A program made the position numbers and the translations under genes. A model generated the notes under the pieces. That model made no database searches. It had not been told where the DNA came from and saw only the letters and a program-made list of their open reading frames with translations. From a virus (Duplodnaviria; Caudoviricetes), in IMG/VR virus record IMGVR_UViG_3300014656_000004, positions 1-53,303 of that record: a stretch of 53,303 bases of DNA, one strand, 5' to 3'. Shown here one piece after another: positions 9,106-39,315 of this stretch. How positions within the stretch are numbered: position 1 is the stretch's first letter; each line of letters begins with the position of its first letter.

Positions 9106-9482
9106 TACACATATATAATAAAAGTTGGTTTCTTTGCTTTCTTTGCTTTTTCGATGGTATCGGCGGTTCCACTGGATTTACCATCCCAAAAGGCTAATAC
9201 CATATCACAATTATCAACTATTGTTTGGTTGCGAATGAACCCTGCCGACTTGCCATATTTTTTCCATTCAGGTAAATATCTTACTATTTCAATCCCCCAA
9301 GAAGTCGCCCACCTCTCTCCGATAGAATCTGCTCCTTTTGCCCCGCCTGAAATTAAGGTATCAAATTGACGGGGGGCTTCAGAGAATCGGGATAAGGTAT
9401 CTATCAACAAATCATAATCATTAAAAGTCCGACTACCTACGATTGCCAATCTGGTCATAACATTAACTCCAAATATGTTCAT
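9105..9482 (-). CDS. SLOG-superfamily (YspA/DUF2493-like) protein
   Basis: IVGSR...ISGGAKGAD...YGKSAGFIRN...AFWDGKSSGT motifs. Confidence 0.88.
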   Translation of the reverse strand: MNIFGVNVMTRLAIVGSRTFNDYDLLIDTLSRFSEAPRQFDTLISGGAKGADSIGERWATSWGIEIVRYLPEWKKYGKSAGFIRNQTIVDNCDMVLAFWDGKSSGTADTIEKAKKAKKPTFIIYV

Positions 9483-10060: not shown

Positions 10061-11463
10061 TTATTTATTTTGGGGTCTCCTTTTACGACATGCTGCGGCG
10101 GCAGCGTCAATAATACTCTGCCTGCGTTCATCATTATGAGGAATAACCTTAGTAACCTCCGCAGGAATATTGTCGATGTGTAGGGGGATGGGATGGATAC
10201 CTTCAACTGCTGCAATTCGGCGAATCGCTATTTCACAGTATTCCGGCTCTTTCTCAATACCGATGAAGTTGATTCCTAATTCCTTACAAGCCATCCCTGT
10301 TGTACCTGATCCAAGAAATGGGTCAAGAATAATTTGTTCTGCGGAGGGCATTTTCAAAAGAGTACAGAGATATTTCATCAAGGCAAGAGGTTTGACCGTT
10401 GGATGTGTGTTGGTTCTGATTGTTTCTCCACGTTGGTAAGGATTGTCAATTGGGGTTTGACGACCATCATTTACTTTCTCTCCAGATTTATTTTCCAACC
10501 CCAGATTGCGTTCTCGTTTTGAAGTTTTTGCACAATAGAAAAATCGGGAAGCACCGCCGGAATCTTTGTGTCCTTGGGTATTCCCACCCGAAACACCAAA
10601 CATGCCAATACCTTTACCATCACCTTTATTCTTACGAAAACTGCTCGGCGTTTTTCCACTCTGCTCATCCAGCATTTCCCCCGCTTCTTTGTCCAAAATT
10701 AAATTGGCGGGCCAGCGACCTTGATGTTCTTCGGTTATTCCTCCTTCAAACGCTGTTCGCCATCTTGGGTCTGGTTTGCCTCTAACCTGTTTTGGAATTA
10801 TCTCTGTCCCAATTCTCCCCCCTTCAATATTCAAACCTGCAACTCCATACTTTTCAGCATTATCAGCAAACGAACCTTCTTTTGGTTTCATACAAACCAA
10901 AATCGGCTCCCAAGCTGGTTTTAGGGCGGTGCCGTAGCCTTCCCATTCGGATTGACCTTTTGTAATATCTGGATGTGTTGTTCTGCCACTTTGACATTTT
11001 CCTTCACTTGCTCTTTCTGCTTCATCACTTGCTTTATAAGGTGATATAGAAATCCACTCTCTTTTATTCCCCCGCAATTTGTCTATCGCCTTCCCAATAT
11101 TATGAGACTTCGGAAACCCACTCCCATACAACCACATCATACAATCCCTAATTTCCCAACCAGCATCTTCAATAGCACAAGCTAATCGGTGAAAAGTACG
11201 AGTGCCGCCGAAACAAAGAAGGAACCCTCCGGGTTTGGTGATTCGGAACATTTCTTTCCACATTGGGACATTATAAGCAATTCCAGAGGAATCCCATTTT
11301 TTTCCCATAAATCCCAATTCATACGTCACGGAGGGTCGGTGACTATGGCACTAATACTGTTTGAAGGCATTTTTCGCACTACCTCAAAACAATCGCCACA
11401 AATCACACGACCCACATACTCCTTCAAGTCCGGTTGTGTCGTTTTAGATGGCATTTTAGACAT
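10061..11463 (-). pseudogene. N6A/N4C DNA methyltransferase (beta class), interrupted in the DPPY motif by a 5-nt insert with an in-frame TGA; pseudogene or recoded gene
   Basis: Upstream 45-aa ORF 11463-11326 (ICGDCFEV...IVTDPP*) plus downstream YELGFMGKKWD...GFPKS...HPTVKP...DPFLGSGTT. Confidence 0.88.
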
Positions 11464-11841: not shown

Positions 11842-12516
11842 CTAAAACCCCGAGTTGGTGTTATTTATAAATTGTACTATATTCATATTAGCATTATCTG
11901 CATTTTTCTTTATCCTTTTCATACAAGAGACAATATCTATTATCATATCTTCTTTGGAAAATATTATAGATTGGGAAGAAATTGGTGTTCCAATTTTCGT
12001 ATTTGAATTATTAAGTTTTTGGAGTTTACGAGGATCAATTTGCATAATTGCTCTTATAAAATCATATTTTGAATCTAACTGGTTTGCACATTGCATCAGC
12101 ATATTAATACTCATCCCCGCACGAGCCATTCTACAGGTAACTAAAGAGGGGATATAATTTTTGCAGGCTTCGGGCTTATTATTATGGATAAGACATTTTT
12201 TATTATAGGAGAGAAAAGGACATCCTTGATGTGTACGGAATACATAGGGATATTTATTGCGATTGATCTTTACACTTTGAGGAACATCTCTCATAGGAAT
12301 CATAATTTCTTTTAGACGAGGTTCACGTTCAATATCTTCTGTAGTGAGTTCTACAAATTGATCTCTATGGCAACAGGCTCCACAATTTTCACATTCTAAA
12401 GAAACAGTGCACATTTTTAAGTTAAATTCTGCTATGGCTCTCAAATTTAACGATTTCTGTAGCGTTTTGTGTCTTCTTTTAATTTTTCGCCGTTTCTTCA
12501 TTTTAGTTTCTTTCAT
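11842..12516 (-). CDS. YkgJ-like CxxCxxCC (Fe-S/Zn cluster) protein
   Basis: CENCGACC...CPFL...CLIH..KPEACKNY. Confidence 0.85.
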   Translation of the reverse strand: MKETKMKKRRKIKRRHKTLQKSLNLRAIAEFNLKMCTVSLECENCGACCHRDQFVELTTEDIEREPRLKEIMIPMRDVPQSVKINRNKYPYVFRTHQGCPFLSYNKKCLIHNNKPEACKNYIPSLVTCRMARAGMSINMLMQCANQLDSKYDFIRAIMQIDPRKLQKLNNSNTKIGTPISSQSIIFSKEDMIIDIVSCMKRIKKNADNANMNIVQFINNTNSGF

Positions 12517-12869: not shown

Positions 12870-13931
12870 TCATGCCCTTAAAGCCCACTCCCATTTACCA
12901 TCCCCGCCACCTATGCCCCCTATTTTAGTAGATTGGATTCCAAGTTTGCTCTTGATTCGTTCCAATGTTCTTTTTGAGAAACCCATCTGGAGACCTACAT
13001 TGAATATTTCGTTGGCTGGTTTAGGGCCATCGGAAAGATATTCTTGAAGCCATTCGGTGGCAGCATCTTTTTTCGGGGAGCGTTTCTCAAATTTTATTGG
13101 GGCCAGAAGCTCCTCGGCGGAGGTGTGGATAGTTTCAGGGGAGAAGGCACAGTAGGGGGCATCGGCTGTTCCGCCGTCGAAGGTTGGAATAGAGGTGCTC
13201 ATTATCGTGAAAGACAGACCAGTGGGATTTTTGGATAAATTTCCTTTTGAGGGAACAAAAAGACGCCCAATTTCATTTTCAGGGTCTTGGTGGACTAACC
13301 AGACGGCTCGCACGGCGGCAGTAAAAGCTATTGACCCTAAGACACGGTAGTTTGCAGTTTGAGTCATTTGGTTTTTGTTAAGATGGGTGATGCCGATAAT
13401 GGCTATGTCGGCATTCCTGGCGAGGTCGGCAAGGGGAGTGAGGTATTCTCGGACTTCTGCATTTTTGTTTTCATTTTTGCCTTCCATATAGGCGGAGATA
13501 GGATCGATGATTACTAATTTTAAGTCCGGCATATCTTTTACTGTTTGAATCAAAACATCTAAATCTCTGGTTAGGTTATAGAGACCATGCCGTTTTCCGA
13601 TTTCATCGGTGTATGAAGAAAGAGAGCAGATTTTTGCCAAATCCGCTTGGGCGGCCATTAATCTTGGCCCCACTGTATCAGATAAATCATCTTCGGCAGT
13701 TAGGATGAGTACTGAGGCTGGGGTTCGGGGTGTGGAAGTATCTATCCAGGGGCGACCTGTTGAGACTTGGGCAGCTATATATAGAGATAAGAGAGATTTT
13801 CCCTTGCCTGGGTCACCAACGATAAGTGATATTTTACCAAGAGGGATACGGTTTGGCCAGAGCCAGCTTAACTTTTCCATTTTAAGTTCCTTAATGGGAT
13901 GGGGTTCAGGTTTTTTTATTAGATCTTTCAC
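12870..13931 (-). CDS. AAA_25 / RepA-like SF4 helicase, no primase domain
   Basis: WLWPNRIPLGK, Walker A GDPGKGKS, VIIDPI, HLNK, GSIAF. Confidence 0.88.
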   Translation of the reverse strand: MKDLIKKPEPHPIKELKMEKLSWLWPNRIPLGKISLIVGDPGKGKSLLSLYIAAQVSTGRPWIDTSTPRTPASVLILTAEDDLSDTVGPRLMAAQADLAKICSLSSYTDEIGKRHGLYNLTRDLDVLIQTVKDMPDLKLVIIDPISAYMEGKNENKNAEVREYLTPLADLARNADIAIIGITHLNKNQMTQTANYRVLGSIAFTAAVRAVWLVHQDPENEIGRLFVPSKGNLSKNPTGLSFTIMSTSIPTFDGGTADAPYCAFSPETIHTSAEELLAPIKFEKRSPKKDAATEWLQEYLSDGPKPANEIFNVGLQMGFSKRTLERIKSKLGIQSTKIGGIGGGDGKWEWALRA

Positions 13932-15329: not shown

Positions 15330-16028
15330 TTACTTTTTGCTTTTCTGGTATTTTGCTATCCTTGCCACGTGCTCAAGAAACTCCTTTTGAGAATAAGCCA
15401 ATTTCATTCGATTACACATTGCACAACAAGCCACAACATTCCCTTCCACATATCCTCTGGAGTTATCCACACGGTCAATTCCCTGATAAATATATTCACC
15501 ATGTTGCCCCTTATCTTTACAAATATTTGAAGGCTTCGCTCCGCAGTAGAAGCATTTCTGTCCGCATAGTTCTCGAAAATATTTTCGGGATAGTTGAAAG
15601 TTATAATTCCGCTCTTTTGCTCCATTTTTGCAGTTTCTAAGTATTCTATTAAAACCTGATTCCCCAAATGGGAGTCTACGCAAACAACCACAGGATTTCA
15701 CGTTTCCTTTTTTTAGACTTCCTCTGGAGACTATTTTAATTTTCTTGCAATCACACTGACATTTCCAAAAAGACCTCCCCTGCTTGCCATAACCTGCTTG
15801 TTCTAATACTACTAACATTCCAAAACGTTGTCCAACTAACGAAGATTGTTGAAGACATCCACAAGACTTAGTGTGTTCACTTCTTAGATGATAACCTGCT
15901 ACTATTTTAATCGTTCCACAAATACATTGACATTTCCAGATAGATCTGTGGTATTTGTCCATGTGGTCAAACCCCAATACTACAAGTCGGCCAAATCTCT
16001 GTCCTGTCAAATCTAATCGTTTGCCCAT
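15330..16028 (-). CDS. HNH-type endonuclease-like protein with two DLTGQRFGRL...WKCQC...SCGC repeats
   Basis: Repeated Cys motifs plus CFYCG...GIDRVDNSRGY..GNVVACC..CN. Confidence 0.8.
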   Translation of the reverse strand: MGKRLDLTGQRFGRLVVLGFDHMDKYHRSIWKCQCICGTIKIVAGYHLRSEHTKSCGCLQQSSLVGQRFGMLVVLEQAGYGKQGRSFWKCQCDCKKIKIVSRGSLKKGNVKSCGCLRRLPFGESGFNRILRNCKNGAKERNYNFQLSRKYFRELCGQKCFYCGAKPSNICKDKGQHGEYIYQGIDRVDNSRGYVEGNVVACCAMCNRMKLAYSQKEFLEHVARIAKYQKSKK

Positions 16029-18825: not shown

Positions 18826-19002
18826 TTATTCTGTAACCTTAAATGTAAATAACGGACGAACGTCAAATTCCCTTTTTTCAAGACACAATTCCGCCCAACA
18901 ACATTCATTGGAATATTCACAAACCATTTTCGTCCTAAAACAGGGGGTGTTCCCCTCCGAAGTCTGCAAGTCTCTAATCTTTTTTATTATTGTCTTATTC
19001 AA
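18826..19002 (-). CDS. Small Cys-rich protein (..LQTSEGNTPCF..C..CCW..C)
   Basis: Translated by hand; TTG start overlaps the upstream stop. Confidence 0.55.
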   Translation of the reverse strand: MNKTIIKKIRDLQTSEGNTPCFRTKMVCEYSNECCWAELCLEKREFDVRPLFTFKVTE

Positions 19003-19354
19003 GATATTTTCTTGCTTTTAATATAAAATCATAGTCTTCAAGAAAACCGAGTTTCTTATTACATTTATGGCAAAGTAATCCGCGAACTGCTCCAGTTTCA
19101 TGGTCAACCGATAGGCGTATTGCCCCAAATCTATTTCTACCTGTTTCCGGTAAATTACAGATAGCACAACAACCGTTTTGTTTGGTAAACATTTTGTTGT
19201 AATCTTCAACTGTTATACCATAATTGTACTTTAATTGGTATTCTCTCTCTTCCTTTTTATGTGTTCTTTTCCATTCGCGGTTGTGTTTCTGGAATCTCTC
19301 CTTATGCTCCAGGTAATACTTTCTATCATAGACTTTTTTGTCTTCTTTGTTCAT
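18995..19354 (-). CDS. Endonuclease VII-like protein
   Basis: YGIT..Y..M...Q...CAIC...VDH..G.VRGLLC..CN..LG. Confidence 0.85.
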   Translation of the reverse strand: MNKEDKKVYDRKYYLEHKERFQKHNREWKRTHKKEEREYQLKYNYGITVEDYNKMFTKQNGCCAICNLPETGRNRFGAIRLSVDHETGAVRGLLCHKCNKKLGFLEDYDFILKARKYLE

Positions 19355-20265
19355 TACAGGATAGGATAACTCCTTATTTCAATTTTGGGGGAAATATATT
19401 CCCGGCCCCCGATAACCTGTTCATAAAAAGGCCAAATCACAATTTTAGCGGTCATAAAAGCCCTTGCTGGATAACAGTTATTGGATTCATAAGTCCCTCT
19501 CCCAACGGAATGACTATCAAGCCAGCACCCTGGATTAAGAGCAAAACGATGTCGCCACAGCAAATCCGCAGGTAAATCCCCTCGTGTGGGAACATAAGCC
19601 ACCGGTTTCGGAGCTGAGTATGCAAATGTATGGGTATGACCACTAATACATATATCTGCTATTTCCCATTCTGCTTGCATTGCATAGAGCTTTAGGTGTT
19701 CCGCCGATACACTTCTCCCAGCCCCATAACCATGCCTGGCCACAACGATAACGGACGAGCTACTCTTTCCGCTATTCCTAATGAATCTAAACCGAATCAA
19801 AACCTCATCAGATAGATTAGGCACACCAAGGTTGTCACATAACATTTTTTGAATATCTTGGTTATACCATTTCCGTATGGCTTTTTCGTGATTCCCCTCA
19901 ATAGCTCCCAAAAGGATATGCTTTACAGGGTCAAGAATTTTAGTAATTCTTTTAACCTCGTGAGATGCAACATCAGAGAGTTTGTCCCTCACCTCTTCTT
20001 TATCCCCCTCAAGAAGCCAATCTGCCACGTCAGTGAAATCAAACCTCTTAGTATCCTTGGGTTTAACGGCATTAGCTGCATCTCCACCGAGCAAAACCCG
20101 AATATGACGATTGGGCATCCTATCCCGCTTAACTACCTCCCCAATCCATTTCCTTATCGCCAATTCATTACAATTAGATTTTCCAATGTGCATATCATAC
20201 AAAGGAAAAATCTCCACTCTGTCTCCACGTCCCTGACATTCTATTTCAACATTCAATAGTTTCAC
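19354..20265 (-). CDS. Calcineurin-like metallophosphoesterase
   Basis: DMHIG, GD, GNHE, HG, GHTH motifs. Confidence 0.88.
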   Translation of the reverse strand: MKLLNVEIECQGRGDRVEIFPLYDMHIGKSNCNELAIRKWIGEVVKRDRMPNRHIRVLLGGDAANAVKPKDTKRFDFTDVADWLLEGDKEEVRDKLSDVASHEVKRITKILDPVKHILLGAIEGNHEKAIRKWYNQDIQKMLCDNLGVPNLSDEVLIRFRFIRNSGKSSSSVIVVARHGYGAGRSVSAEHLKLYAMQAEWEIADICISGHTHTFAYSAPKPVAYVPTRGDLPADLLWRHRFALNPGCWLDSHSVGRGTYESNNCYPARAFMTAKIVIWPFYEQVIGGREYISPKIEIRSYPIL

Positions 20266-20275
20266 AAATTCTCCT

Positions 20276-20860
20276 TTAGTCTATTATTCTATAATATGTG
20301 CCAAGAAAAACTATTTCCGAATGGCGGGGACACCAAGGGATTATTTTTGCCGCTAATGGGTTCTTTCTTGGTGGCCCCCACTCAAAATCATCTGGCATCT
20401 TTGGCATCAAATCCCGAACCTCCGTCCAAAACATCCGGGTATCCGCCAATTTAATCTCTTTGTTTGGACTAAGATCAACTCCTAAAGCCATTCCAATCAC
20501 CGCCTCAAGCCTCTGCTCAAAAGCCCTAACTGGTTCATAATAGGCATTAATCAGTTTGGATTCGGGGATAGTTACACGAAGCAGTCCCTTCCAAGGACTG
20601 GTCAAATCCCCTATATAAGCCTCCGCAGAATCATGTAGCAATCTTGCCAACGGGTCTCCAGGTAAATCTGCATTAGCCATCAGCACACAATGTTGAGCCA
20701 CTGAATAAAACTGTTTGGCATGCCCCGTATATCTACACACATTCGCTAAAGCATGGGCAATGTCCTCAATACACACCATTTCCGGCTTAGGATTCAAAAA
20801 CTCAAACACTTTCCCTGTATAAGTCACGATATGTGTTATTTTCTTTGTCATTTCAGGCAT
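20276..20860 (-). CDS. HD-domain phosphohydrolase (5'-deoxynucleotidase YfdR-like)
   Basis: IEDIAHALANVCRYTGH...YSVAQH...LLHDSAEAYIGD. Confidence 0.9.
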   Translation of the reverse strand: MPEMTKKITHIVTYTGKVFEFLNPKPEMVCIEDIAHALANVCRYTGHAKQFYSVAQHCVLMANADLPGDPLARLLHDSAEAYIGDLTSPWKGLLRVTIPESKLINAYYEPVRAFEQRLEAVIGMALGVDLSPNKEIKLADTRMFWTEVRDLMPKMPDDFEWGPPRKNPLAAKIIPWCPRHSEIVFLGTYYRIID

Positions 20861-22877: not shown

Positions 22878-23825
22878 TTATTTGTTTTGTTTTTTTGCAG
22901 CTTCAACTGCAACATTATAATTTCGGACAAACACATTCCACGCATTAACCCGTGGGATTTCAAATTTCCGAATCATCCCAGGAGCCGCTCTCCCCTTCCC
23001 TTCCCGCTCCGCTGTCGTATAGGAATCAAGGTAATACGTTGAGGACATTTCCGTTCCACAGATTACCTCAATAACCTGACCACTTTTAGTTTTCCGTTTT
23101 TCCTTTTTATCAATTTCCTGGTTGATACAATAAATCGTCAGCTTAAAATCACTACTTCGGACAATCTTGGCGGCAAATGAAGGAAACACAGCATCTCGGA
23201 CAACTGTTCTTTCCCTATGAGTAACGGGATTTGTCTCTGTTTTGGTAATCATGTGACCGACACAAGCCCACACAAATCCGGCTTCTTCCAACTCCCTCAA
23301 TCTCGACCAACATCGCTCCCGAATCATAGACCACCCATGTCCCTGACTACCGAATTCTGTAATATCATCGACACCTTTTTCAAATTGAAGCCGATTGACA
23401 ATCATTCCCACCCATTCATCAACGGTATCGACAGAAATCCGATGAACAAAGTGCTTCCCTCCCTTTCCCTCATCAATTAATTTTTGAGTAATCTCCATAT
23501 AGTGCTCGTAGTCCCTTATTGCAACCCGCATTGCTCTTGTTCCTATGATACTTTCTGCCGACTTGTCAAAATCCAAAATCAGGTTGTTCGGAATGCTTGA
23601 GTTAAATGTGGTTTTACCTTCTCCACTTGGTCCGACAATCCACAGGTTCAAATCCTCCGCAGGTTTAGGGTTATATCCGGTTTCGACCCCAAGTTTTGCC
23701 CAATCCATAGGAATCACCGGCACAGTATTAGGAGTTGCAGGCAATACCACATTTCCTTGTGGAGGTTTGACTCCCCCAGCTTGAACTGTTTGCTGAATAT
23801 TTTTTGGTTGTTCTATGGTTGCCAC
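22878..23825 (-). CDS. AAA_24 / Sak4-like recombination ATPase
   Basis: GPSGEGKTT, LILDFD, ISVDTVD, GHGWSM, VGH. Confidence 0.85.
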   Translation of the reverse strand: MATIEQPKNIQQTVQAGGVKPPQGNVVLPATPNTVPVIPMDWAKLGVETGYNPKPAEDLNLWIVGPSGEGKTTFNSSIPNNLILDFDKSAESIIGTRAMRVAIRDYEHYMEITQKLIDEGKGGKHFVHRISVDTVDEWVGMIVNRLQFEKGVDDITEFGSQGHGWSMIRERCWSRLRELEEAGFVWACVGHMITKTETNPVTHRERTVVRDAVFPSFAAKIVRSSDFKLTIYCINQEIDKKEKRKTKSGQVIEVICGTEMSSTYYLDSYTTAEREGKGRAAPGMIRKFEIPRVNAWNVFVRNYNVAVEAAKKQNK

Positions 23826-24639: not shown

Positions 24640-25899
24640 CTATTGATTTTCAACTTTTCGTGTCTCCGTGAGGGTTCCGTCCTCAATGTAGAATCCGATT
24701 GTGTTTTCGTCGGTCATTTTCTCTATCCATACCTGATAATCCTTGTCGGTAATGAGTTTACCGATTGTCGCCAAGCTATCCTTATCGAGGTCATTGCCGT
24801 TAATCCGCAGGACTTTTAGTTCTGGGTTGAAGGCCATTGCAATCGCCACACAAATCTCCAATTTCTTGGCATCGTTCACCTGTTCCAGTGGAATCCCCTC
24901 AAATGCCAGCCCATCAGATTGAATCGTAAGTCCTTTAACTGGCATAATAGCCTCGGCCATTTTCCGTGCTTTACTGGCTTCCGTCATCTTAACTTGTTCC
25001 CCAAGGTCACTATACGCCTTACAATGTGTCTCATATTCGACCATTGCTTGTTTCTTGCGGTTATTCCGCCGAATAGCCTCATTGGTATCCCCCAAAGATT
25101 TTATTTTGGCTTCAACCTCCGCAGGGTTTTCCAGAATAGGGCTTGGTTTTATTTGCTTCTCTAATTCAGTTTTCATAGTTATAAGAGAAGCGACTTTCTT
25201 TTTCCATGCCTCAATCGCTTTTTGGGCAGCATCAATATCTTCGCGTATTGTCACTAATTGACTGGCTGTAACCGCATTATCTGTTTCAACTCGCTGACAT
25301 TGCTCGTTGTATTTTCGGATAGTCTCTAATTTTTTCAGTAATTCATCTGCACTTTGTTCCACCACAGGGATACCTGGCGTAAATGCAATGCTATCCACCT
25401 CGTAAAGTTTCCGTTCTTTTTCTTTCCGAACATCTGAACGTTCTGTTTTCAGAGCTTCAATTTTGTTATCGAACACGTCTAAATTCAAGCCGAGAAATTC
25501 CATCAAAGCATTTCGTTGTTCTGCGGGGGTTTTCTTCATAAAAGCCATCGGGTCAAAGGAAATAGCCCCAACTATTTTATCCAGAAAAGCCTGTGGACTC
25601 GAAACCTTGGATTTGGTTTCTCCTGTAGTTTCAACAGTTAAGGTAGAATTCGTCCCAAGGAATTTCCGAGTTACTTTATATTCCCCCATATCTATTTCCA
25701 CTTTTGCTCGATGTTCCCCAGTCTTAATCGGTTGTTTTGGAAGATTTCTGCCACCGCACAAGGCTGCTTCAATAGCATCAAGCACGCTACTTTTTCCAGC
25801 CGCATTCTTGCCGGAAATGATAACCATATTACCATCCGGCGTAATCTCCACCGCCGATAACTTCTTAAAATTATTCGCTGTCAGTTTCAGAATCTTCAT
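24640..25899 (-). CDS. SMC/Rad50-like coiled-coil ATPase
   Basis: MKILKLTANNFK...GKNAAGKSSVLDAI, central coiled coil, degenerate C-terminal ABC half. Confidence 0.85.
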   Translation of the reverse strand: MKILKLTANNFKKLSAVEITPDGNMVIISGKNAAGKSSVLDAIEAALCGGRNLPKQPIKTGEHRAKVEIDMGEYKVTRKFLGTNSTLTVETTGETKSKVSSPQAFLDKIVGAISFDPMAFMKKTPAEQRNALMEFLGLNLDVFDNKIEALKTERSDVRKEKERKLYEVDSIAFTPGIPVVEQSADELLKKLETIRKYNEQCQRVETDNAVTASQLVTIREDIDAAQKAIEAWKKKVASLITMKTELEKQIKPSPILENPAEVEAKIKSLGDTNEAIRRNNRKKQAMVEYETHCKAYSDLGEQVKMTEASKARKMAEAIMPVKGLTIQSDGLAFEGIPLEQVNDAKKLEICVAIAMAFNPELKVLRINGNDLDKDSLATIGKLITDKDYQVWIEKMTDENTIGFYIEDGTLTETRKVENQ

Positions 25900-26923
25900 T
25901 TTCTGGCTCCAATTCTCGGATTTTATATTTTGTTTCAAACAATTCCGGCCATCTTGATTTCGGCGACTCACACAAATCATAATAGATACATTGTGAACCA
26001 TATAGGAAGCAGTGGAATCTCGACGGGTCCCGACTATATGCTTCGGGAATATTTGGCCGACTCCCAAGATTCTGCATTGTCAACAATTCATGCATCAATT
26101 CCCAGGAGACTAATGGCTCATTGAACATTATGGCTTGAGACCGAATTGCAGCTGTACCACTTTCAGCATACCATTCCTTAACCCTGCGGAGGTAGGCTTC
26201 TTCAACATCGCAATTCCACAGTTTTGCATTTTTCTCGTCTTTGCCACAGAGCTTAATCCCTGGTTTCAAAATCCCATCCAGAATAAATCCTTTTAGGGAA
26301 GCAAAGTTTTTGTAGAAATCCTCGGCCAAGATTCGATATATCCTCGCTTGAGTTGACCAAGGAAACCCTGCGAAAATAACATCAAGTGTTTTCATCCCAG
26401 TGCTTTTATGGTCTCGAATCCAAATGTCTCCATTGCGGGTATCCTGGATGAGTTTGTCAATGGTTCCTCCTAACACCATCCCCTTCAATGCCCCATCTTG
26501 AATTATCATCGAATGTTTTATTTCGGTTCCGATTGTCTTTAGATAATCCGGAGTTGGATAACATTCCCAGAAGAGTTTGGCCATAGCCTCAGCCTTATTA
26601 TAAAGTGTCGTGAGTAGATTTGCCAGCCGAAGTATTTGTCCATCCAAGTCCTCCCCTCTATCAACTTGAGCCATCAAATCAGTTTGCATCTTGCGTACCC
26701 AAGCCTGCACTTCCTGTTCGTGGCCGGGGCCAAGTTGTTGGAACTTGTGATAAATTTTCCCGAGCGATGCTCCTTCTTTTACCTTGACTCCTCGCAACTC
26801 AACGCCCCATCTCTCTTTCAGAAAGAAACAGCGTTCACACCCATGTGCAAGAGATATAGATGATTGATGGCAGGTAAACGGCCTCATCTGAATATCTTCA
26901 ATTTTCATTTTCTGGCCTTTCAA
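25871..26923 (-). CDS. PD-(D/E)XK (RecB/Cas4-like) exonuclease
   Basis: GKIYH, GTIDKL...IRDHKS, QARIY, C-terminal Cys cluster. Confidence 0.85.
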   Translation of the reverse strand: MKGQKMKIEDIQMRPFTCHQSSISLAHGCERCFFLKERWGVELRGVKVKEGASLGKIYHKFQQLGPGHEQEVQAWVRKMQTDLMAQVDRGEDLDGQILRLANLLTTLYNKAEAMAKLFWECYPTPDYLKTIGTEIKHSMIIQDGALKGMVLGGTIDKLIQDTRNGDIWIRDHKSTGMKTLDVIFAGFPWSTQARIYRILAEDFYKNFASLKGFILDGILKPGIKLCGKDEKNAKLWNCDVEEAYLRRVKEWYAESGTAAIRSQAIMFNEPLVSWELMHELLTMQNLGSRPNIPEAYSRDPSRFHCFLYGSQCIYYDLCESPKSRWPELFETKYKIRELEPENEDSETDSE

Positions 26924-27927: not shown

Positions 27928-28509
27928 TTATTTCTCCTCTAATAATACGGGGGGCACATCGAAAGTCCTTTGCAGGGCATATCCCAACATCAAATGTAAA
28001 AGTAAATGTCCCACCTTACGCCGAGTATTGGCACATCGGCTTTTCCATGGTAAGAAGATAACATGAAAACCATACTTCGCAATAGCAAGGGATAGCCGAT
28101 GGGCAACTAATTCTGGATTCTGGATTTTTGGATCATCCCCAAGCAATTCCTGCGGAGAAGCCTCTACCAACAAAAGGGGATGTCGGCAGGATGCAATCAA
28201 TCGCCGAAATGCTTTTGCCTGTCTAATCCGGTCGTGGGACTCATTAAGGTTCTTATATATCTCAAGCTGGCTCGCCTTACGTTCTGCAATACATTCTTCG
28301 GGATATTCCTTGAGCCGGTAATCTCCACAGTCCAACTTGACTCGTTCCTGCTTTACTGCTATTGGAATCATTTTGTGGGTGAGTTCTGGGTCGCCTATTT
28401 TAATTATAGCTGGAAATAGTAACGGAAATTGTTCACGAGAATCAATCTGAATCGTAATAACATTTGGTATTTTATAACGCCAATGTTTATCGGTCTTTCG
28501 AGGTATCAT
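27928..28509 (-). CDS. ERCC4-domain nuclease (possible resolvase)
   Basis: IDSREQ...LDCGDY...AERK...LLVE. Confidence 0.85.
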   Translation of the reverse strand: MIPRKTDKHWRYKIPNVITIQIDSREQFPLLFPAIIKIGDPELTHKMIPIAVKQERVKLDCGDYRLKEYPEECIAERKASQLEIYKNLNESHDRIRQAKAFRRLIASCRHPLLLVEASPQELLGDDPKIQNPELVAHRLSLAIAKYGFHVIFLPWKSRCANTRRKVGHLLLHLMLGYALQRTFDVPPVLLEEK

Positions 28510-28747
28510 TTCCCAATTCCTTATCAAGCAAATCACAATCCGATGGACTTAAATGCTCCGCCACTTTCCAAAACCACAACAGAGCTTCTTTCCATCCTAA
28601 TCCAAAATCAATTTCGTCAGGAGGACGATTGGGAAATCTTTTCTTACATTCTTCATACACTTTTTTGACTTCTTTCATATTTTGTATTCCTTCTTTTGTA
28701 ATGGCATAGTCAGGAAATTCAGGAATAGTTTTCATTTCGTTACTCAT
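28487..28747 (-). CDS. Hypothetical protein, NUMOD4-like start
   Basis: KTIPEFPDYAITKEG. Confidence 0.55.
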   Translation of the reverse strand: MSNEMKTIPEFPDYAITKEGIQNMKEVKKVYEECKKRFPNRPPDEIDFGLGWKEALLWFWKVAEHLSPSDCDLLDKELGNDTSKDR

Positions 28748-31325
28748 ATACTCGTTTCTCCGTTACCCAAGGAATTTCCCTTCCAGCCCACCGATAGAAT
28801 ATATCGAGGACGTAGGGATGTTCCATATTTCTGATTATAATTTCATCGACGACTTCTTCCTCGCCGGGGAAAATGTCGGCGAAAAGGGCATCATAAATCT
28901 GCAAACAAATAAGAGTTTTCAAATGCAAATCTCGAAACTCTTGTATTATCTGATAATGTGCAGATTGTAAAAGTTGAGCACAAGGAGTCTGGTGCATAAA
29001 GTTACAGATTTCATTTGTATAGCTGGCTACTCCGCTCGGCCCAAGCCCAAAAGTCCTACTCCATCCCGTAGGCAATACAAGGTATCCCTGTTTTGATGCT
29101 AAATCAATTAATCTGTCTTGCCACTCTTTATAGACAGGATGTTTATTATACCATACATTTATAGCTCTTTGGCAAAAAGACAATTCCAACTCTACCCCGG
29201 CATCTCCGAGCACTACTTTTTGAAAAGCCTCCGGGCCTCCTTTGAAGATAACCAAAAAGTTTAGACTCTTACAAGCTGTATATTCTTTGGGGTATTTTTT
29301 CTTGAAGTCCGAACAAAATAAATCAGGGAAAACATCCGCTGCTGTTTTCAAATGAACACTCTCTCCTTCTTTTTGATAAATTTCCATCAATGGCGGGTCT
29401 CCTGAAAGTAAAGCCGCCATTCTTAAGTGGTCTTGATTATAATCATACTCAACTAACTTTCCCCCCCTCCATCGAGATGTGGAGCAATCTCTAATAGAAT
29501 GTGGTTCAGTTTGTCTCGCAGGTTTCTTACAACTAAAGCGTCCCTGGGTTTGACCTCCGACTTTATCATCGGAACTTCCTCCCCGCTCAAAGTAACTGGG
29601 AATGGGATACCACGATGGGAAAACCATCCCGACATTTCCATTTCGGATAACAATACCTTGTCTTGGATTGGACAGTAGAGGTTTTGTATAGGTATTGACA
29701 ATTTTGCTCCTTTCCTTATATTCCTGAAAGTTAGATACAATGTCCAAATGTATCCCCTCTGGTAAATGCTTTTTCAGCAGGTTAGCGTTCTCCACCCCAA
29801 TAGAAATATTTTTCGTCTTGTCAGTATATTGAACTCGGCTGTCTCCTATTAAGTCAGCTTCTTCCACACACTCCAAGAAAAATTGTCGTAATGGTTTATC
29901 CGAACCCCGACCCGCCAACTTTATACCATATTCTGTCTCTGTATATTCAAGAAGCTGCTGGCACCGTACTTGTTCTTCGTTATGAAATTTTTCCAACTTC
30001 GTGACATCCAAAGCACTGCCATTCAAATCCAAATCGAAAGTGTCCCACACAATAGCATTCCTCATCCAAGCACATTCGTCACTCAACTTTTCCGAATCCT
30101 CTCCGTATCGGTCAACGAGCCTTGTCAATAATTCTTCTCTCAACTTCAAGGTGGTGACACCATCGACTCCATTGTATTTATGTAACTCCTTATCCCAAGG
30201 GGACTTAGCATTACCAGACCCACCAGAAATCATTATCTTTTGGTAATCGGAAATACCAAATAACATCGACAATTCCTTGAGACCTTTCTCTGGCTGTTGC
30301 TCATATAAAAGAAAACTCAAAATCAAAGTATCATCCATTTTCAATCTGCGGGGGTCAATCCAATAACGAAGTTCCCTATCTGCGGAGGCTAAATACATCA
30401 AATCGAATTTTACATTTTGTCCGACAAGAGTAATCCCCTTTTGTGATAGGACTCTAAACCATTGTCGAATAATCTGTAAATGCTTCGAGTCACTGAAAAC
30501 GTATTCTGCGGAGTGTATTATCCCCGTCAAGTCTCGCCATGAAAAATTAATACAAATTACTTGGTCGGGGAAATCAACCCCGTCAATATATTTAGATTTA
30601 ATCGGATTGAAAACAGTCTGCTCTACTCCTTTCAAGATTCCATAAGTTTCAATATCACAAGACACGACATCAGGAAGTTCATCAGGGACAGATATTCCAA
30701 GTTCCGGTTCTTCAATCTCCTCATTTGGAATAAACTGTCCCTCCAAATACCTCCGCAGAAGAACAAAATGAGATTCAACCGCCCGTACCAATGCCGGTTT
30801 TCTCAATGGATGCAACATCGCCAAGTGAAAAGTGCTAAAGACTCGAATCATTGGGAAATCCAACATCGTTCCCCCTTGTTTCTTAAAGACATCTTTCAGG
30901 GCACTGTTGTTGGTGACACTATAAACGGCTTTTGCTCCGATAGCGAAGATAATAACTTCCTCATATTGACTCAACAAAAATAGGATATCTACAAATAAAT
31001 AATCCCGGCAGGCTCTCACTTGTGCTTGCGTTATGTCCCCGCCTTGAGGATGCCGACAACGACAGGCATTGGCCAAATAAATATCACAATACTTTTCTAA
31101 TTCGGATGCCTCAATGAATTTGCCAAGCAACTGCCCTGTATAACCAATCCAAGATTTCCCTGCTCTATCTTCATTTACGCCTGGATTTTGCCCGACAATC
31201 AACAGAACCTTATCTTTAGAAACAGGTTGATTGTCCCGGAAAGGTCTCGTCGGAATCCCAGGGTTAGAGGCCGATTCACAAAGAGAACATTTCGTACAAT
31301 CAGGATGGGATTGGAATTTAATCAT
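28740..31325 (-). CDS. Family A DNA polymerase with N-terminal family-4 UDG-like domain and 3'-5' exonuclease
   Basis: CxxC...GQNPG..ED...NACRCR (UDG); DIET, NVKFD, YNGVD (exo); TQGRFS, DYNQDHLR, KSLNF, QIYDAL (pol). Confidence 0.9.
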   Translation of the reverse strand: MIKFQSHPDCTKCSLCESASNPGIPTRPFRDNQPVSKDKVLLIVGQNPGVNEDRAGKSWIGYTGQLLGKFIEASELEKYCDIYLANACRCRHPQGGDITQAQVRACRDYLFVDILFLLSQYEEVIIFAIGAKAVYSVTNNSALKDVFKKQGGTMLDFPMIRVFSTFHLAMLHPLRKPALVRAVESHFVLLRRYLEGQFIPNEEIEEPELGISVPDELPDVVSCDIETYGILKGVEQTVFNPIKSKYIDGVDFPDQVICINFSWRDLTGIIHSAEYVFSDSKHLQIIRQWFRVLSQKGITLVGQNVKFDLMYLASADRELRYWIDPRRLKMDDTLILSFLLYEQQPEKGLKELSMLFGISDYQKIMISGGSGNAKSPWDKELHKYNGVDGVTTLKLREELLTRLVDRYGEDSEKLSDECAWMRNAIVWDTFDLDLNGSALDVTKLEKFHNEEQVRCQQLLEYTETEYGIKLAGRGSDKPLRQFFLECVEEADLIGDSRVQYTDKTKNISIGVENANLLKKHLPEGIHLDIVSNFQEYKERSKIVNTYTKPLLSNPRQGIVIRNGNVGMVFPSWYPIPSYFERGGSSDDKVGGQTQGRFSCKKPARQTEPHSIRDCSTSRWRGGKLVEYDYNQDHLRMAALLSGDPPLMEIYQKEGESVHLKTAADVFPDLFCSDFKKKYPKEYTACKSLNFLVIFKGGPEAFQKVVLGDAGVELELSFCQRAINVWYNKHPVYKEWQDRLIDLASKQGYLVLPTGWSRTFGLGPSGVASYTNEICNFMHQTPCAQLLQSAHYQIIQEFRDLHLKTLICLQIYDALFADIFPGEEEVVDEIIIRNMEHPYVLDIFYRWAGREIPWVTEKRVYE

Positions 31326-31785: not shown

Positions 31786-31809
31786 TTTCGTTCCTTTCAA
31801 TATGTGTGT

Positions 31810-31857
31810 ATTATACCAAATCCTGCGGAGGGAGTCAAGTGAAAAATAAAAATTATT
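31810..31857 (-). promoter_or_regulatory. Promoter TTGACT-N17-TATAAT with the motif in the spacer; 48-bp exact repeat of 35480-35527
   Basis: TTGACT cCCTCCGCAGGatttgg TATAAT. Confidence 0.85.
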
Positions 31858-34800
31858 GCAAATATTTTCCAAGACCGACATCACCTACGTCAATGTCTCG
31901 TGTGATATTGGCAAGGCTGGCCTCACCTAAAATCTGGGAGAATAAAGGTCGATAGGCGGAAGGCAAACCACGTTCAATTCGGTGTAATCGTGAAATCTCC
32001 CGCCGGTTCTCAAGTGCTCTAATATCGGACTTCTTTATTTGTAGAGGGCCTAATTCCGGATAAGCCTTAGTGAACTCTTTCTGAACGGCTTCGGCCTTCC
32101 TGTTATCATTTTCCGACAATGCCTGTAGGTAATCTCGTTTGTACGCTCGAATTTTTTCCCGTTGGGCCAGTAACCACTGTGCCGCCGCTTGCTCTGCGGC
32201 TACACTTGAAGGCCGTAATCCCAATGTTTTCAATGTCAACTGAAAAGGAGTTACTGCCCCAATCAAAGCATGTTTATTATTATAAATCGGAATCCTTCCA
32301 TCTGGAGTTCTATTTTTATAATCTGCATATTTAGGATGCAAAGCTCGATACGCTTTCCTCGCCGCTATTCCGCCAGGCACTAATAAAGCTGCCGTAGCCC
32401 CTAAGTCTTTACCCTCTCCGGTCAACAGAGCCTTCGCCCCTGTGCCGATAACTCCTACTGCTGGCGGTACAAGAGGGAATGGATAGAAGGGAGACCCTTC
32501 GTATGTTGGTATAGGCAAAGCCCCCATCGCCAAACCAGATGATATATCCACTCCCAACAAGTTCTTTGCTCCCAAATACATAGCTGTAGAACCTGCCATA
32601 GTCCGTCCTATTGTACCCCAATCCAATTTAGAGGGGTCTGGCCCCATCCTAAGAGACTGGTGTAGGAAAGCTCCAAATCGCATAGGAAAGTGCATAAACT
32701 GCTTCCAAGGAGGCCACATATTAATTAGAGCTTTAGGAATCCCCAACGGCCCCCCTGTAAACTGAGTCGTCATCGTCAAAGTCTGTCCAACTTTCCCAGC
32801 TTCCTTGACTATCTTATCTCTTACTGCGGATGAAGCCCCGGCTAATATATGTTTATTTTCATACAGGTGTTGATTCCTACCTGCATAATATGACATAATT
32901 CTATTGCCACCTTCTGATGTGGCAAAAGGCATCAACATCCCCGTCTTAACTTTCTCCCATATTCTTTTCCACCCCGCCCCGCTAAACATCTTTCTTGAAA
33001 GTCCTTCTTTGGCAATATCCCCAGCAAGTAGTGATTCTACAATATTAGATGCTTCTCCCATATCAGCTACATATTCTGGAAATGCTAATCTAAAAGCCTC
33101 CTTCGTGGATTTTCTATCCACTATCATCATTTTAAGATATTTCCCCATCTTAGCAAGAGCACCTTCACTGCCTGGAACACCCTTCAATCCTCGATACATG
33201 CCCATTACACCAACTTGATTTAGTGTAGTTATTAGAGTTTGTAAACTATTTTTACTTGCCGGAGAAATGTTACCCCCTAATGTCGAAAGATGAAACCAAT
33301 GAGAAATATTTGCTCCTGCACCCTCCGCAGACCAAGAACCTGAAATGTCTCCTGTTCCTTTCATTAACCAATCCTTGCCCTTTTTACCAACAATCTGTTC
33401 CACCATCGGATGTGTTTTAACGAACTCATGCACCTTGGCTTTCTTGGTAGAAAACCAAATAGACCTTCGTAGTTCCTGCCATGATTTATTACCCATAAGA
33501 TGTGGAACTATATCGTCATACACATAAGATTCCCCCCAAGGCATGTTCTCCCACACCCCGGGTTTATTAGCTATAACGTTTATTCTCTCACCAGCCCCGG
33601 TTCCATGCCAGGAATAGGTAGTAGCGGTTGCATTAGTGTATCTTTTGGTAGCATCCCAAATATCGAGAGTATACTGCCGGGGAGTCCCCATAACCCGTCC
33701 CACATCTCGCACTTCGGCTCGAAAGAAATCTTCCCCTTTGATACGGGCTTCTGTTAAAGAGTCTGCCATAGCATTCAACGTATCTGCTGCGGTTTTTTTG
33801 CCCCCAAATCTCCCCGCAAAATCAAGTTTTTGCCCTGCCCCCTTCGTGAAATAATTTTCCATTCTACTTATAAATTCAACATTTGCTCGCCCAGAATCTA
33901 ATCCTAATCCCTGAACGTCCTTCCAAACTTTCTCCACTTCAAGAGCAGCATCGTCTCCCCATCTATTAAAAACAGTTCTGGCAGCATTAGTATAACCTCG
34001 TGGAATAAGCCCCGCCGATTCCATCTCTTGTAGTTGTTCTAAATTAGTAATTCCCCCGCCAGTTCTTGCAATAGATTCTTTAGATAATGGGCCAGTCTTA
34101 GCTTCTTTACGCATAAATGCTTTATAGTTGGTACGGGTTGTACCTCGTATTGCCTTCAAAGAATATTTATCATATTGAGCATTTCTTGGGAAATAATCAT
34201 CTATCTCATCCCCATAAGTTAATCCCAATTTTGCCAAAGAATCTTTAACTCGTTTCTCTCCTCCAGGAGTACCTTTTAACATATCTTTGACTTGATTTAA
34301 CCACCCCCGCATATCCCCATAAAGACCGTGCACTTCCTTTCTCATCTTGCCACTAATTCCGCCAGCAATAGGAACATCTTTGCCCCCCATAATAGCTACG
34401 ATTTCCGGTTCATTCCCAAGCATTTTTACCATTGCATGAGTTGGTTTGTCTAATCCATCTAATTTCGCAGCTACTGCATACCCTTCTACTTTAGAGAGAC
34501 GACCAGCCTTGCCAAACATCTTCTCAATTTTATCGATTTGTTTGGATAGATATTTCGTTTTAGAACTTATAACATCCGCCATAGCTTGGTACATTCCGGG
34601 GACACTGCGGAGATTATTAATGGCCGGATGTATCCCTGACATTATTTCTCCCATAGCTTTAGCCTTTGGCATCATCCCTTTTGCCAAATCAAGCATAGGC
34701 TTCGTAGAGCCAATCGGAAATTTCCACAACCCCACTACAAGTCCCATAATAACTAACGGATTCGTGGCAATATCCGTTATAGTTTTTAGTATAGGGTCTG

Positions 34801-35008
34801 GCTTCTTTCCTTTGAACAGAGCATTACGAAACGATTGAATCTCGTGTGGAGTCAAAGTTTGAGGGCTAAAGATAGCCCGAGTCATTGGGTCGATGTCCCC
34901 CCGCAGCAAATTAGCAAAAGCTAATTGAGGTCTATCATAGAATGTAATTGGAAAATCAGCCGCAGCAATACCATAAGGAACATCTTCGTCTGGATTATAT
35001 TTAGCCAT
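31853..35008 (-). CDS. Large internal virion / ejection protein (1051 aa)
   Basis: Size, helical Gly/Ala/Lys-rich composition, QFMHFP motif, last gene of the virion cluster. Confidence 0.6.
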   Translation of the reverse strand: MAKYNPDEDVPYGIAAADFPITFYDRPQLAFANLLRGDIDPMTRAIFSPQTLTPHEIQSFRNALFKGKKPDPILKTITDIATNPLVIMGLVVGLWKFPIGSTKPMLDLAKGMMPKAKAMGEIMSGIHPAINNLRSVPGMYQAMADVISSKTKYLSKQIDKIEKMFGKAGRLSKVEGYAVAAKLDGLDKPTHAMVKMLGNEPEIVAIMGGKDVPIAGGISGKMRKEVHGLYGDMRGWLNQVKDMLKGTPGGEKRVKDSLAKLGLTYGDEIDDYFPRNAQYDKYSLKAIRGTTRTNYKAFMRKEAKTGPLSKESIARTGGGITNLEQLQEMESAGLIPRGYTNAARTVFNRWGDDAALEVEKVWKDVQGLGLDSGRANVEFISRMENYFTKGAGQKLDFAGRFGGKKTAADTLNAMADSLTEARIKGEDFFRAEVRDVGRVMGTPRQYTLDIWDATKRYTNATATTYSWHGTGAGERINVIANKPGVWENMPWGESYVYDDIVPHLMGNKSWQELRRSIWFSTKKAKVHEFVKTHPMVEQIVGKKGKDWLMKGTGDISGSWSAEGAGANISHWFHLSTLGGNISPASKNSLQTLITTLNQVGVMGMYRGLKGVPGSEGALAKMGKYLKMMIVDRKSTKEAFRLAFPEYVADMGEASNIVESLLAGDIAKEGLSRKMFSGAGWKRIWEKVKTGMLMPFATSEGGNRIMSYYAGRNQHLYENKHILAGASSAVRDKIVKEAGKVGQTLTMTTQFTGGPLGIPKALINMWPPWKQFMHFPMRFGAFLHQSLRMGPDPSKLDWGTIGRTMAGSTAMYLGAKNLLGVDISSGLAMGALPIPTYEGSPFYPFPLVPPAVGVIGTGAKALLTGEGKDLGATAALLVPGGIAARKAYRALHPKYADYKNRTPDGRIPIYNNKHALIGAVTPFQLTLKTLGLRPSSVAAEQAAAQWLLAQREKIRAYKRDYLQALSENDNRKAEAVQKEFTKAYPELGPLQIKKSDIRALENRREISRLHRIERGLPSAYRPLFSQILGEASLANITRDIDVGDVGLGKYLQ

Positions 35009-39287: not shown

Positions 39288-39315
39288 ATTATAACACATT
39301 ATTTGATTTTGTCAA
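39288..39315 (-). promoter_or_regulatory. Promoter TTGACA-N16-TATAAT for the ejection-protein operon
   Basis: Consensus hexamers. Confidence 0.7.

Follow-up and report, generated by a model that had tools for sequence, protein, structure and literature searches.

A clade of UDG-fused phage family A DNA polymerases with histidine at the steric-gate position and tyrosine in place of the O-helix arginine

The family A DNA polymerase encoded by the Caudoviricetes record IMGVR_UViG_3300014656_000004 departs from the classical Klenow motifs at several residues around the incoming nucleotide. This raises the questions of whether the departures are correctly placed, whether they are maintained among relatives, and what they might mean for the choice of substrate. 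We analysed the whole stretch of 53,303 bp (hereafter the window; G000 among the genomes compared), a virus record that is 100% complete, bears direct terminal repeats and has all its genes on the minus strand. An earlier note on this DNA had listed the substitutions from the letters alone, and had suggested that they alter substrate selectivity or, as no primase was recognised, permit self-priming.

The polymerase, P0001, is an 861-aa open reading frame (ORF) at 28740..31325 (-), in which a uracil-DNA glycosylase (UDG), a 3'-5' exonuclease and a family A DNA polymerase are fused. Pfam profiles place DNA_pol_A at residues 501-837 (77 bits; cut-off 34.3) and UDG at residues 39-171 (48.6 bits), and give a weak match to DNA_pol_A_exo1 at residues 273-402 (17.5 bits, below the cut-off of 23.6). 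Among the PHROGs, the protein matches phrog_17, DNA polymerase, with an E value of 2.5e-58. Sequence searches of the PDB returned family 4 UDGs for the N-terminus (Thermus UDG 1ui0, E 2.5e-13) and the Pol I enzymes of Taq, Bst and Klenow for the C-terminus. The N-terminal, family-4-like UDG domain, supported by both Pfam and Thermus 1ui0, occupies about residues 1-195 (30741..31325 (-)). In the proofreading exonuclease domain (30096..30683 (-)) all three motifs were found by translation, namely Exo I DIETY, Exo II NVKFD and Exo III YNGVD.

The AlphaFold2 model of P0001, built with 31 homologues as input, is of high confidence (mean pLDDT 87.9) and Klenow-like, with palm, fingers, thumb and exonuclease. 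By Foldseek, this model best matches Pol I structures (Aquifex, Bst, Klenow, Taq), with TM-scores by target of 0.75-0.79 and E values of 2e-24 or lower, and its best full-length viral matches are phage PolAs of 820-1050 aa (TM-score by query 0.70-0.72, 13-16% identity). We scanned 41 of the 51 minus-strand ORFs of the window with Pfam, and 49 of the 51 (all but 5466-5747 and 31582-31884) with PHROGs or Pfam. P0001 gave the single PF00476 (DNA_pol_A) match of the whole record, and the 49 ORFs gave no match to another polymerase family. By profile, fold and catalytic core P0001 is a family A polymerase, and by architecture it is a UDG-fused PolA.

We assigned the motif columns from a phmmer/HMMER alignment of P0001 to Taq Pol I chains and confirmed their coordinates by translation. 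Motif A reads DYNQDHLR (D628-R635; 29421..29444 (-)) on DYSQIELR of Taq ('lveydynqdhlrmaallsgdp' on 'lvaldysqielrvlahlsgde'). The catalytic D628 is kept, D632 stands in place of Ile, and H633 occupies position A2, that of the steric-gate Glu. Motif B, the O-helix, reads YTACKSLNFLVIFK (Y682-K695; 29241..29282 (-)) on RRAAKTINFGVLYG of Taq ('eytackslnflvifkgg' on 'mrraaktinfgvlygms'), and the AlphaFold2 model has a helix at 679-693. In the pattern R-x3-K-x3-[FYL]-x3-Y, the Lys (K686) and the Phe (F690) are present; Y682 replaces the gamma-phosphate Arg and F694 replaces the Tyr. Motif C is YDA (Y811-D812-A813; 28887..28895 (-)) on HDE of Taq ('lqiydalfad' on 'lqvhdelvle'), with Tyr for His, Ala for Glu and the Asp, D812, kept. 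D628 and D812 fall on the motif Asp residues of Taq. Further retained contacts are H658, Q779 and R596, which we take to be H734, Q849 and R668 of Klenow.

For comparison with the well-studied enzymes, we take D632 to correspond to Klenow I709 (Taq I614), H633 to E710 (E615), Y682 to R754 (R659) and F694 to Y766 (Y671). On the same assumed correspondence, the changes in Klenow numbers are I709D, E710H, R754Y, Y766F, G767K, H881Y and E883A, and the retained residues are D705, D882, K758, F762, H734, Q849 and R668. Of the classical motif features, P0001 thus lacks three, namely the Glu of the gate, the Arg and Tyr of the O-helix, and HDE in motif C. Alignment to Taq and translation bear out every substitution that had been read earlier from the letters (His for Glu in motif A, Tyr for Arg and Phe for Tyr in motif B, YDA for HDE in motif C), as well as the retention of both catalytic Asp residues, the motif B Lys and the exonuclease motifs. 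The alignment does not put the canonical residues anywhere else in the protein. Since relatives from the same family hold them (D[LF]SQIELR and R...K...F...Y) in these very columns, we consider the motif columns to be rightly placed.

Next, we asked how these positions behave among homologues. A word-seeded search found 208 relatives of P0001, 120 of them listed; the listed matches are mainly from environmental contigs, of which the longest gather at 50-57 kb. A HMMER search of 50%-identity representatives gave 423 proteins at E ≤ 1e-30 and 10,370 at E ≤ 0.001, and the best 150 of the 10,370 were taken. The alignment set consisted of 240 out of 267 proteins, with lengths of 780-1000 aa (27 were dropped for length). 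This sample is enriched in close relatives of P0001, and its counts are not prevalences.

The catalytic residues are nearly invariant in the 240 homologues (D628 in 239, D812 in 238, K686 and F690 in 236 each), and so are the contact residues (H658 in 239, Q779 in 238, R596 in all 240). The pocket positions vary in a restricted manner. At the E710 site we found Glu in 151 proteins, His in 88 and Arg in one, and at the I709 site Ile in 117, Asp in 87 and other residues in the remainder. Only Arg (128) and Tyr (112) occur at the R754 site, and the Y766 site has Phe in 144, Tyr in 95 and Leu in one. The substitutions form a package. Every one of the 88 His-gate sequences has Phe at the Y766 site, and 87 of them also have Asp at the I709 site together with Tyr at the R754 site; the lone exception, P0093, has Ser-His in motif A with Arg and Phe in motif B. 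The gate and O-helix residues combine as Glu+Arg in 126 homologues, Glu+Tyr in 25, His+Arg in one and His+Tyr in 87. As all four combinations exist, viable intermediates are implied. Phe at the Y766 site (position B4) also occurs with a Glu gate, in 56 of the 144 proteins that have this Phe.

Motif C behaves differently from the pocket positions, as its YDA does not set the clade apart: [HY]D[AS] prevails throughout the family, with Ala in 145 homologues, Ser in 61, Glu in 17 and Asp in nine at the E883 site, and Tyr in 161 and His in 68 at the H881 site. The loss of the motif C Glu is not special, because it is common in UDG-fused PolAs. Separately, we observed that the Glu-gate proteins keeping the third-position Glu of motif C mostly bear Tyr at the R754 site (15/17), and that the Arg-bearing Glu-gate proteins have Ala or Ser at this third position almost throughout.

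A phylogeny of the 240 proteins (FastTree, LG+gamma, 627 exonuclease and polymerase columns, midpoint-rooted) placed the 87 Asp-His sequences in one exclusive clade with a support of 1.0, nested among relatives with the canonical Ile-Glu pair. The comparison by alignment and phylogeny that had been suggested as a check thus identifies the substitutions as the signature of one clade, and this package is not noise. P0093 is placed apart from the Asp-His clade, and Glu-to-His therefore arose at least twice. Parsimony gave three changes at the Glu site, at least two of them being Glu-to-His origins, and at least five changes at the Arg/Tyr (R754) site. Among the nearest outgroups of the clade, some Ile-Glu proteins have Tyr at the R754 site, and one, P0096, has both Tyr and Phe. 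Because these Ile-Glu outgroups already have Tyr, or Tyr and Phe, the O-helix changes probably preceded the change in motif A. The stem branch of the Asp-His clade has a length of 0.195, compared with a median of 0.083 and a 95th percentile of 0.293 for internal branches.

Identity to P0001 within the Asp-His clade goes from 84% down to about 47%, and the four pocket residues are invariant over this range. We compared the codons of 19 Asp-His genes (18 viral-contig loci and the window), in 17 of which motif B could be located by pattern. D632 is encoded by GAC in 14 and GAT in five of the 19, and H633 by CAT in 12 and CAC in seven; Y682 is encoded by TAT in 10 and TAC in seven of the 17, and F694 by TTC in 11 and TTT in six. 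Both synonymous codons are therefore in use at each site, and the amino acid never varies. Since the synonymous codons vary while the residues stay fixed, the new pocket residues are under purifying selection.

The clade-specific changes extend beyond the four pocket residues. The segment of P0001 that aligns with PNLQNIP of Taq and Klenow reads PARQTEP (29502..29522 (-), by alignment and translation). Its R604 and E607 are present in 87/87 members of the Asp-His clade, and in fractions of 0.01 and 0.06 of the other homologues. By alignment, R604 belongs to the primer-side PNLQNIP loop. We considered R604 as a general stand-in for the lost O-helix Arg and rejected this idea, the Glu+Tyr relatives nearest to the clade (P0122, P0097, P0096, P0113, P0129, P0111) having Ala, Val or Leu at this position. 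The motif 6 region (28974..28994 (-)) reads HQTPCAQ in the Asp-His clade versus [IV]QT[TLI][AS]AQ elsewhere. Its Q779 is conserved, and H778, P781 and C782 are specific to the clade (H778 at a fraction of 0.94 inside versus 0.00 outside, C782 at 0.97 versus 0.00). Further columns diagnostic of the clade are Q592, C807 (just before motif C), F815, E626, R612 and S615. A new cluster of His and Cys residues, or a metal site, with H633, H778, C782 and C807 as candidate members, is conceivable.

The UDG domain also carries a mark of the clade. In the alignment to Thermus 1ui0 ('ivgqnpgvnedragk' of P0001 on 'ivgegpgeeedktgr'), motif A of the glycosylase (31179..31196 (-)) reads GQNPG in P0001, in place of the canonical family 4 GE[AG]PG with its Glu. 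GQ[NS]PG is found in 72/87 members of the Asp-His clade; outside the clade GEAPG is the commonest form (68/153), and GMAPG occurs in neighbouring lineages. The four cysteines of the domain, C10, C13, C90 and C106, are conserved. The motif A Glu of family 4 UDGs is catalytic. The glycosylase of the Asp-His clade may be inactive or re-specified. The exonuclease motifs are largely retained in the clade (DxE in 84/87, N..D in 81/87, Y..D in 79/87).

What could this pocket do? The reading that we favour, with a probability of roughly 60%, is that P0001 is an active, proofreading replicase with a rebuilt sugar and triphosphate pocket, in which a His serves as the steric gate as it does in PolC. P0001 would be the phage's own replicative polymerase, still copying DNA from deoxynucleotides on a primed template. 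Its two-metal catalytic core is unchanged, with both Asp residues, the Lys as general acid, the Phe that stacks on the sugar, and the contacting His, Gln and Arg. P0001 belongs to a large and uncultured clade of UDG-fused PolAs, in one sub-clade of which the pocket would have been rebuilt as a package, probably stepwise. Motif A has Asp-His for Ile-Glu, the O-helix has Tyr for Arg and Phe for Tyr, the PNLQNIP loop has gained an invariant Arg and an invariant Glu, and motif 6 has gained His, Pro and Cys. By analogy with the His of the C-family PolC, the imidazole of H633 would lie under C2', pack against F694 and keep out ribonucleotides. In Klenow, E710 and Y766 are hydrogen-bonded, the Tyr being the normal partner of the gate Glu. 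The remaining changes would then be compensatory, Phe replacing the Tyr partner of the Glu, and Tyr replacing the Arg. The enzyme probably checks incoming nucleotides somewhat differently, with a substrate range that we expect to be essentially normal. The steric gate of PolC against ribonucleoside triphosphates (rNTPs) is a His (His1275 / His1268; PMC13492167). As His is an established gate in PolC, normal sugar discrimination is at least as likely as an altered one.

Several observations weigh against so conservative a view. R659 is, with K663, among the Taq residues least tolerant to substitution (PMC6345897), and the Arg replaced here is described as needed for gamma-phosphate binding and as non-mutable in Taq (PMC8599892). 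On these grounds, an Arg loss that is merely compensated is not what one would expect. In Taq, fidelity drops when I614 is made hydrophilic, and the I614K mutant accepts rNTPs (PMC6345897). The pair I614E/E615G forms the core of engineered Taq polymerases for 2'-modified nucleotides (PMC9738464), a precedent by which the Asp-His pair found in nature might loosen the selection of the sugar. A functional shift, rather than drift, is also suggested by how many clade-specific changes fall in active-site motifs that are conserved elsewhere, and by the above-median stem branch.

These points lead to an alternative, to which we give a clear minority weight, that the rebuilt pocket alters sugar selectivity, so that the enzyme tolerates or prefers ribonucleotides or other nucleotides varied at 2' or 3', with which it might, for instance, extend or insert RNA as the genome is copied. 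The changed sites are indeed the relevant ones. I614 and R659, along with H639, F667 and K663, touch the incoming nucleotide in KlenTaq (PMC6345897), and the E615 side chain of Taq packs on the 2' position (PMC9738464). A carboxylate one residue upstream of a lost Glu parallels I614E/E615G, and with Phe at the Y766 site a hydroxyl is lost to which the papers on DpoZ ascribe a part in telling dNTPs from NTPs (PMC10201439; PMC8599892). The change of Arg to Tyr is radical, and the remodelling of the active site is broad. However, His has a large side chain where the engineered gate-openers have Gly or Ala, and acts as a gate in PolC (PMC13492167); the 'gate assistant' F690 is kept in 236/240 homologues; a Taq mutant with Phe for Tyr at the Y766 site is active in vivo (PMC8599892); and the proofreading domain is intact. 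The altered selectivity proposed in the earlier note therefore stands in so far as the pocket deviates at nucleotide-contacting positions, with slight support from Taq I614E/E615G (PMC9738464), and no computed result shows that the selectivity is in fact altered.

In a broader form, the same thought would make the Asp-His/Tyr/Phe clade a natural replicase with a different nucleotide recognition, whose sugar or phosphate selectivity is relaxed or re-targeted (towards ribo- or 2'-substituted nucleotides, or an altered phosphate requirement), perhaps together with a clade-specific HD phosphohydrolase. The features involved would be a carboxylate shifted by one residue, an imidazole under the sugar, the lack of an O-helix Arg on the gamma-phosphate, and the new Arg, Glu, His and Cys around the site. 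We regard this as doubtful, though worth keeping in mind. At the other extreme, three losses (the 'immutable' Arg, the gate Glu and the Glu of motif C) might be taken to indicate a dead or vestigial polymerase domain in a phage that is replicated by host enzymes. This is very improbable, as little or no variation is seen at the catalytic Asp pair or at the Lys, Phe, His, Gln and Arg, the substituted residues are invariant in spite of synonymous codon turnover, the exonuclease motifs are intact, and the gene is present in every related genome examined.

We also considered whether the polymerase is adapted to a non-canonical nucleotide pool, with a modified base or an edited pool as in the SPO1-like, SP15-like and DpoZ systems. 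In cultured phages, UDG-fused PolAs go with thymine-modified genomes (PMC13697223; PMC10201439), and Phe at B4 is common to two DpoZ clusters (PMC10201439). In addition, the motif A Glu of the UDG is lost in the Asp-His clade, and an HD phosphohydrolase is present in 5/5 other Asp-His genomes versus 0/5 of the nearest Ile-Glu genomes. The gene content of the window speaks differently. Of the 41 Pfam-scanned proteins, none matched a thymidylate-synthase-like, dUTPase, deaminase, PurZ-like or glycosyltransferase family; Serbin, by contrast, has a dUTPase, a thymidylate synthase and a deaminase beside its polymerase. Base modifications lie in the major groove and would not call for changes in the sugar and phosphate pocket. 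Phe at B4 occurs in 144/240 family members, 56 of them Glu-gated; the co-occurrence with the phosphatase amounts to a single phylogenetic event, and the distant Glu-type loci L030 and L040 also carry a homologue of the phosphatase (37% identity). We therefore consider an adaptation of this kind improbable. A Z-genome and a thymine modification were both rejected as main explanations, the biosynthetic genes not having been found in the scanned proteins.

The HD-domain phosphohydrolase itself lies at 20276..20860 (-) and matches phrog_318, annotated as 'deoxyribonucleoside 5' monophosphate phosphatase', and PDB 2gz4 (E 1e-10). In the PDB search its sole match was Atu1052, and no DatZ chain was matched. 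The phrog_318 annotation resembles that of Dmp, the deoxyribonucleotidase of T5. The T5 enzyme serves in the disposal of host DNA and not in base substitution. We compared gene content by tblastn of the 51 window proteins against four Asp-His and four Ile-Glu complete genomes, and the phosphohydrolase was the only recognisable enzyme found in 4/4 of the former and 0/4 of the latter. The same split was shown by two small unknown ORFs (5466-5747 and 11485-11784) and by two ORFs of the structural module (35745-36149 and 36151-36600), the latter two possibly through divergence. The exonuclease-like protein of the window was found in 3/4 Asp-His versus 0/4 Ile-Glu genomes. Since all these Asp-His genomes come from a single clade, the split is a lead and not a test of correlation.

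The remaining suggestion was that P0001 starts synthesis de novo, which would explain the absence of a primase. We could confirm that no primase is recognised in the window: none was found by Pfam in the 41 ORFs, by PHROGs or Pfam in the 49 ORFs, or in a six-frame profile search of the whole record for a cryptic primase with PF09250 and PF13155, from which remote AEP-like or novel primases would escape. It is also correct that the helicase is without a primase domain, as the AAA_25/DnaB_C-like protein (12870..13931 (-), Pfam/PHROG scans) matches only the C-terminal helicase parts of primase-helicase PHROGs. However, the relatives with canonical Ile-Glu and Arg are equally without a detectable primase. 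The six-frame search with the two profiles was positive in 0/5 genomes, comprising two of the Asp-His type (the window and G001) and three of the Ile-Glu type (G003, G004 and G005), the latter three being otherwise collinear with the window. Pfam found no primase or helicase family in ten otherwise unmatched ORFs of these three Ile-Glu genomes, and no recognisable primase was seen in the scanned parts of five canonical-motif relatives (G003, G004, G005, G009 and G010).

The lack of a primase is therefore not tied to the motif change; it is a feature of the whole phage family, and the idea of self-priming gains nothing from it. We found no evidence for self-priming, and the link drawn earlier between the missing primase and the altered motifs finds no support. 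No initiating-nucleotide site or primase-like domain is evident in P0001, for which Pfam gives only the UDG, the weak exonuclease and the polymerase. The window also has a recombination set, consisting of a Sak4-like protein (22878..23825 (-)), an SMC/SbcC-like ATPase (24640..25899 (-)), a PD-(D/E)XK nuclease (25871..26923 (-)), an ERCC4-like nuclease (27928..28536 (-)) and endonuclease VII (18995..19354 (-)), which could support recombination-dependent or host-primed initiation. De novo initiation by P0001, to which a complete genome with no detected primase family would be open, is thus hardly to be expected. Among the Ile-Glu relatives G003-G005 neither a homologue of the AAA_25 helicase of the window nor any DnaB_C match was detected; the Ile-Glu genome G009 has a homologue of this helicase with 38% identity.

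The ERCC4-like nuclease gene lies ~200 bp downstream of the polymerase, with an 86-aa ORF between them. It was found in 16/18 Asp-His loci and in 33/36 Glu-type loci, and as it is frequent at both locus types, the two genes form a conserved polymerase-nuclease pair. About 530 bp upstream of the polymerase, beyond two small ORFs, lies the gene of a 1051-aa protein (31853..35008 (-)), which is found family-wide at 35-76% identity, has no PHROG match, is Gly-rich with hydrophobic segments, and probably begins the structural module. The Pfam/PHROG scans that identified the nucleases and the ATPase of the recombination set also placed the exonuclease-like protein (19354..20265 (-)) next to endonuclease VII. 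Other recognisable genes are those of a YAcAr/SLOG-domain protein (9105..9482 (-)), a CxxCxxCC zinc/iron-chelating domain protein (11842..12516 (-)) and an N6/N4 DNA methylase (10061..11329 (-)); the methylase probably carries a large insertion, because its match spans residues 18-369 for a 221-position profile. An HNH endonuclease (15330..16028 (-); phrog_374, E 1e-40) lies among the small early genes. Its distribution is patchy (2/4 Asp-His and 1/4 Ile-Glu genomes), and it is probably mobile. Two observations concern the relatives. The large terminase homologue of G003 (L074, G003:46355-49408) has 1017 aa versus 615 aa in the window, which points to a possible intein or insertion. In G004 (L076, G004:25906-30349), the homologue of the 883-aa protein of the window (39312-41963) is split into ORFs of 181, 601 and 697 aa.

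How does P0001 compare with polymerases already described? No DNA relative was found when positions 20000-44000 of the window were compared by megablast with the GenBank phage collection, in which all 182 matching records are below 60% identity to P0001. Our literature search found no paper on His at the gate Glu (E710H, E615H, E658H, E480H), and on UDG-PolA it found only the 2023 reclassification (PMC10201439); supplementary alignments were outside the search and may hold such sequences. In that work, key motif positions are stated to be strictly conserved in all 19 PolA clusters, and unclassified UDG-PolAs are mentioned.

The best named matches to P0001 are the SPO1-like UDG-PolAs of the Bacillus phages SPO1, SP-10, Shanette and CP-51 (~23% identity over ~71% of the query), which likewise consist of an N-terminal family 4 UDG, an exonuclease and a family A polymerase. 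In motif C, the absence of Glu is shared by Shanette (HDS) and Serbin (HDA). Unlike P0001, Shanette keeps DYSQLELR and R...K...F...Y, and Serbin also has a canonical motif A and the motif B Arg and Tyr. The full-length PolAs of Vibrio, Erwinia and Achromobacter phages (873-1055 aa), which we take to be N4-like, are among the best structural matches (TM-score by query 0.65-0.70, 13-16% identity). The N4-like UDG-PolAs (cluster 17, Czernecki et al. 2023) are similar in length, at 800-900 aa, and are described as having UDG catalytic residues that are not conserved (PMC10201439). The SPO1-like phages differ from the window in their 5-hydroxymethyluracil (hmU) genomes and active-looking UDG motifs (PMC10201439; PMC13697223); no hmU pathway was found in the window, where the UDG motif reads GQNPG. 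The SP15-like polymerases of YerA41 and phiLo are also UDG-fused replicative family A phage enzymes, but they are much larger (1306 aa in YerA41), with two large inserts, a C-terminal domain and active UDG motifs, and are accompanied by PolX and a ligase, none of which was seen here (PMC13697223). P0001 is probably not SP15-like, the inserts and the C-terminal domain being absent on grounds of length (861 versus 1306 aa).

Compared with the Pol I enzymes of Klenow, Taq and Bst, P0001 has the same fold, the same two catalytic Asp residues and the same contacts by Lys, Phe, His, Gln and Arg, and differs in its added UDG domain, the lack of a 5'-nuclease domain, the His, Asp, Tyr and Phe changes of the pocket, and YDA. 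With the DpoZ enzymes (phiVC8-like and Wayne-like) it shares Phe at B4, F694 in P0001, a residue termed a unique shared feature of the DpoZ clusters (PMC10201439) and found in 144/240 members of the present family. DpoZ of phiVC8 has Ser for the motif C Glu, as have other phage PolAs, T5 being named (PMC8599892), and unlike P0001 it keeps the Arg (R440; PMC8599892). No PurZ-, DatZ- or MazZ-like family was found in the 41 Pfam-scanned proteins, and because there is no Z-cluster P0001 is not a DpoZ. The His gate is shared with PolC, which has an unrelated, C-family fold, and the comparison is one of analogy only (PMC13492167). The engineered Taq variants SFM19 and SFM4-3 (I614E, E615G) likewise have a carboxylate at the Ile position and have lost the gate Glu (PMC9738464), and SFM4-3 chains were marginally the best PDB sequence matches to P0001 (33.6 bits versus 32.3 bits for wild-type Taq). 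They differ from P0001 in that their gate is an open Gly, as opposed to a bulky His, and in that the O-helix Arg and Tyr are kept.

The steric-gate Glu and the O-helix Arg are regarded as near-universal in family A, and a widespread clade of environmental phages has replaced both under purifying selection. A conserved natural His gate, together with the loss of an 'immutable' Arg, would come as a surprise to a polymerase specialist. The natural intermediates of the family (Glu+Tyr, His+Arg, Tyr or Phe at B4) make up a series from evolution in which the rebuilding of sugar discrimination and of triphosphate binding can be tested. Polymerase engineering could also start from these natural enzymes, since polymerases for xeno nucleic acids are mutated at the two motif A positions that are changed here.

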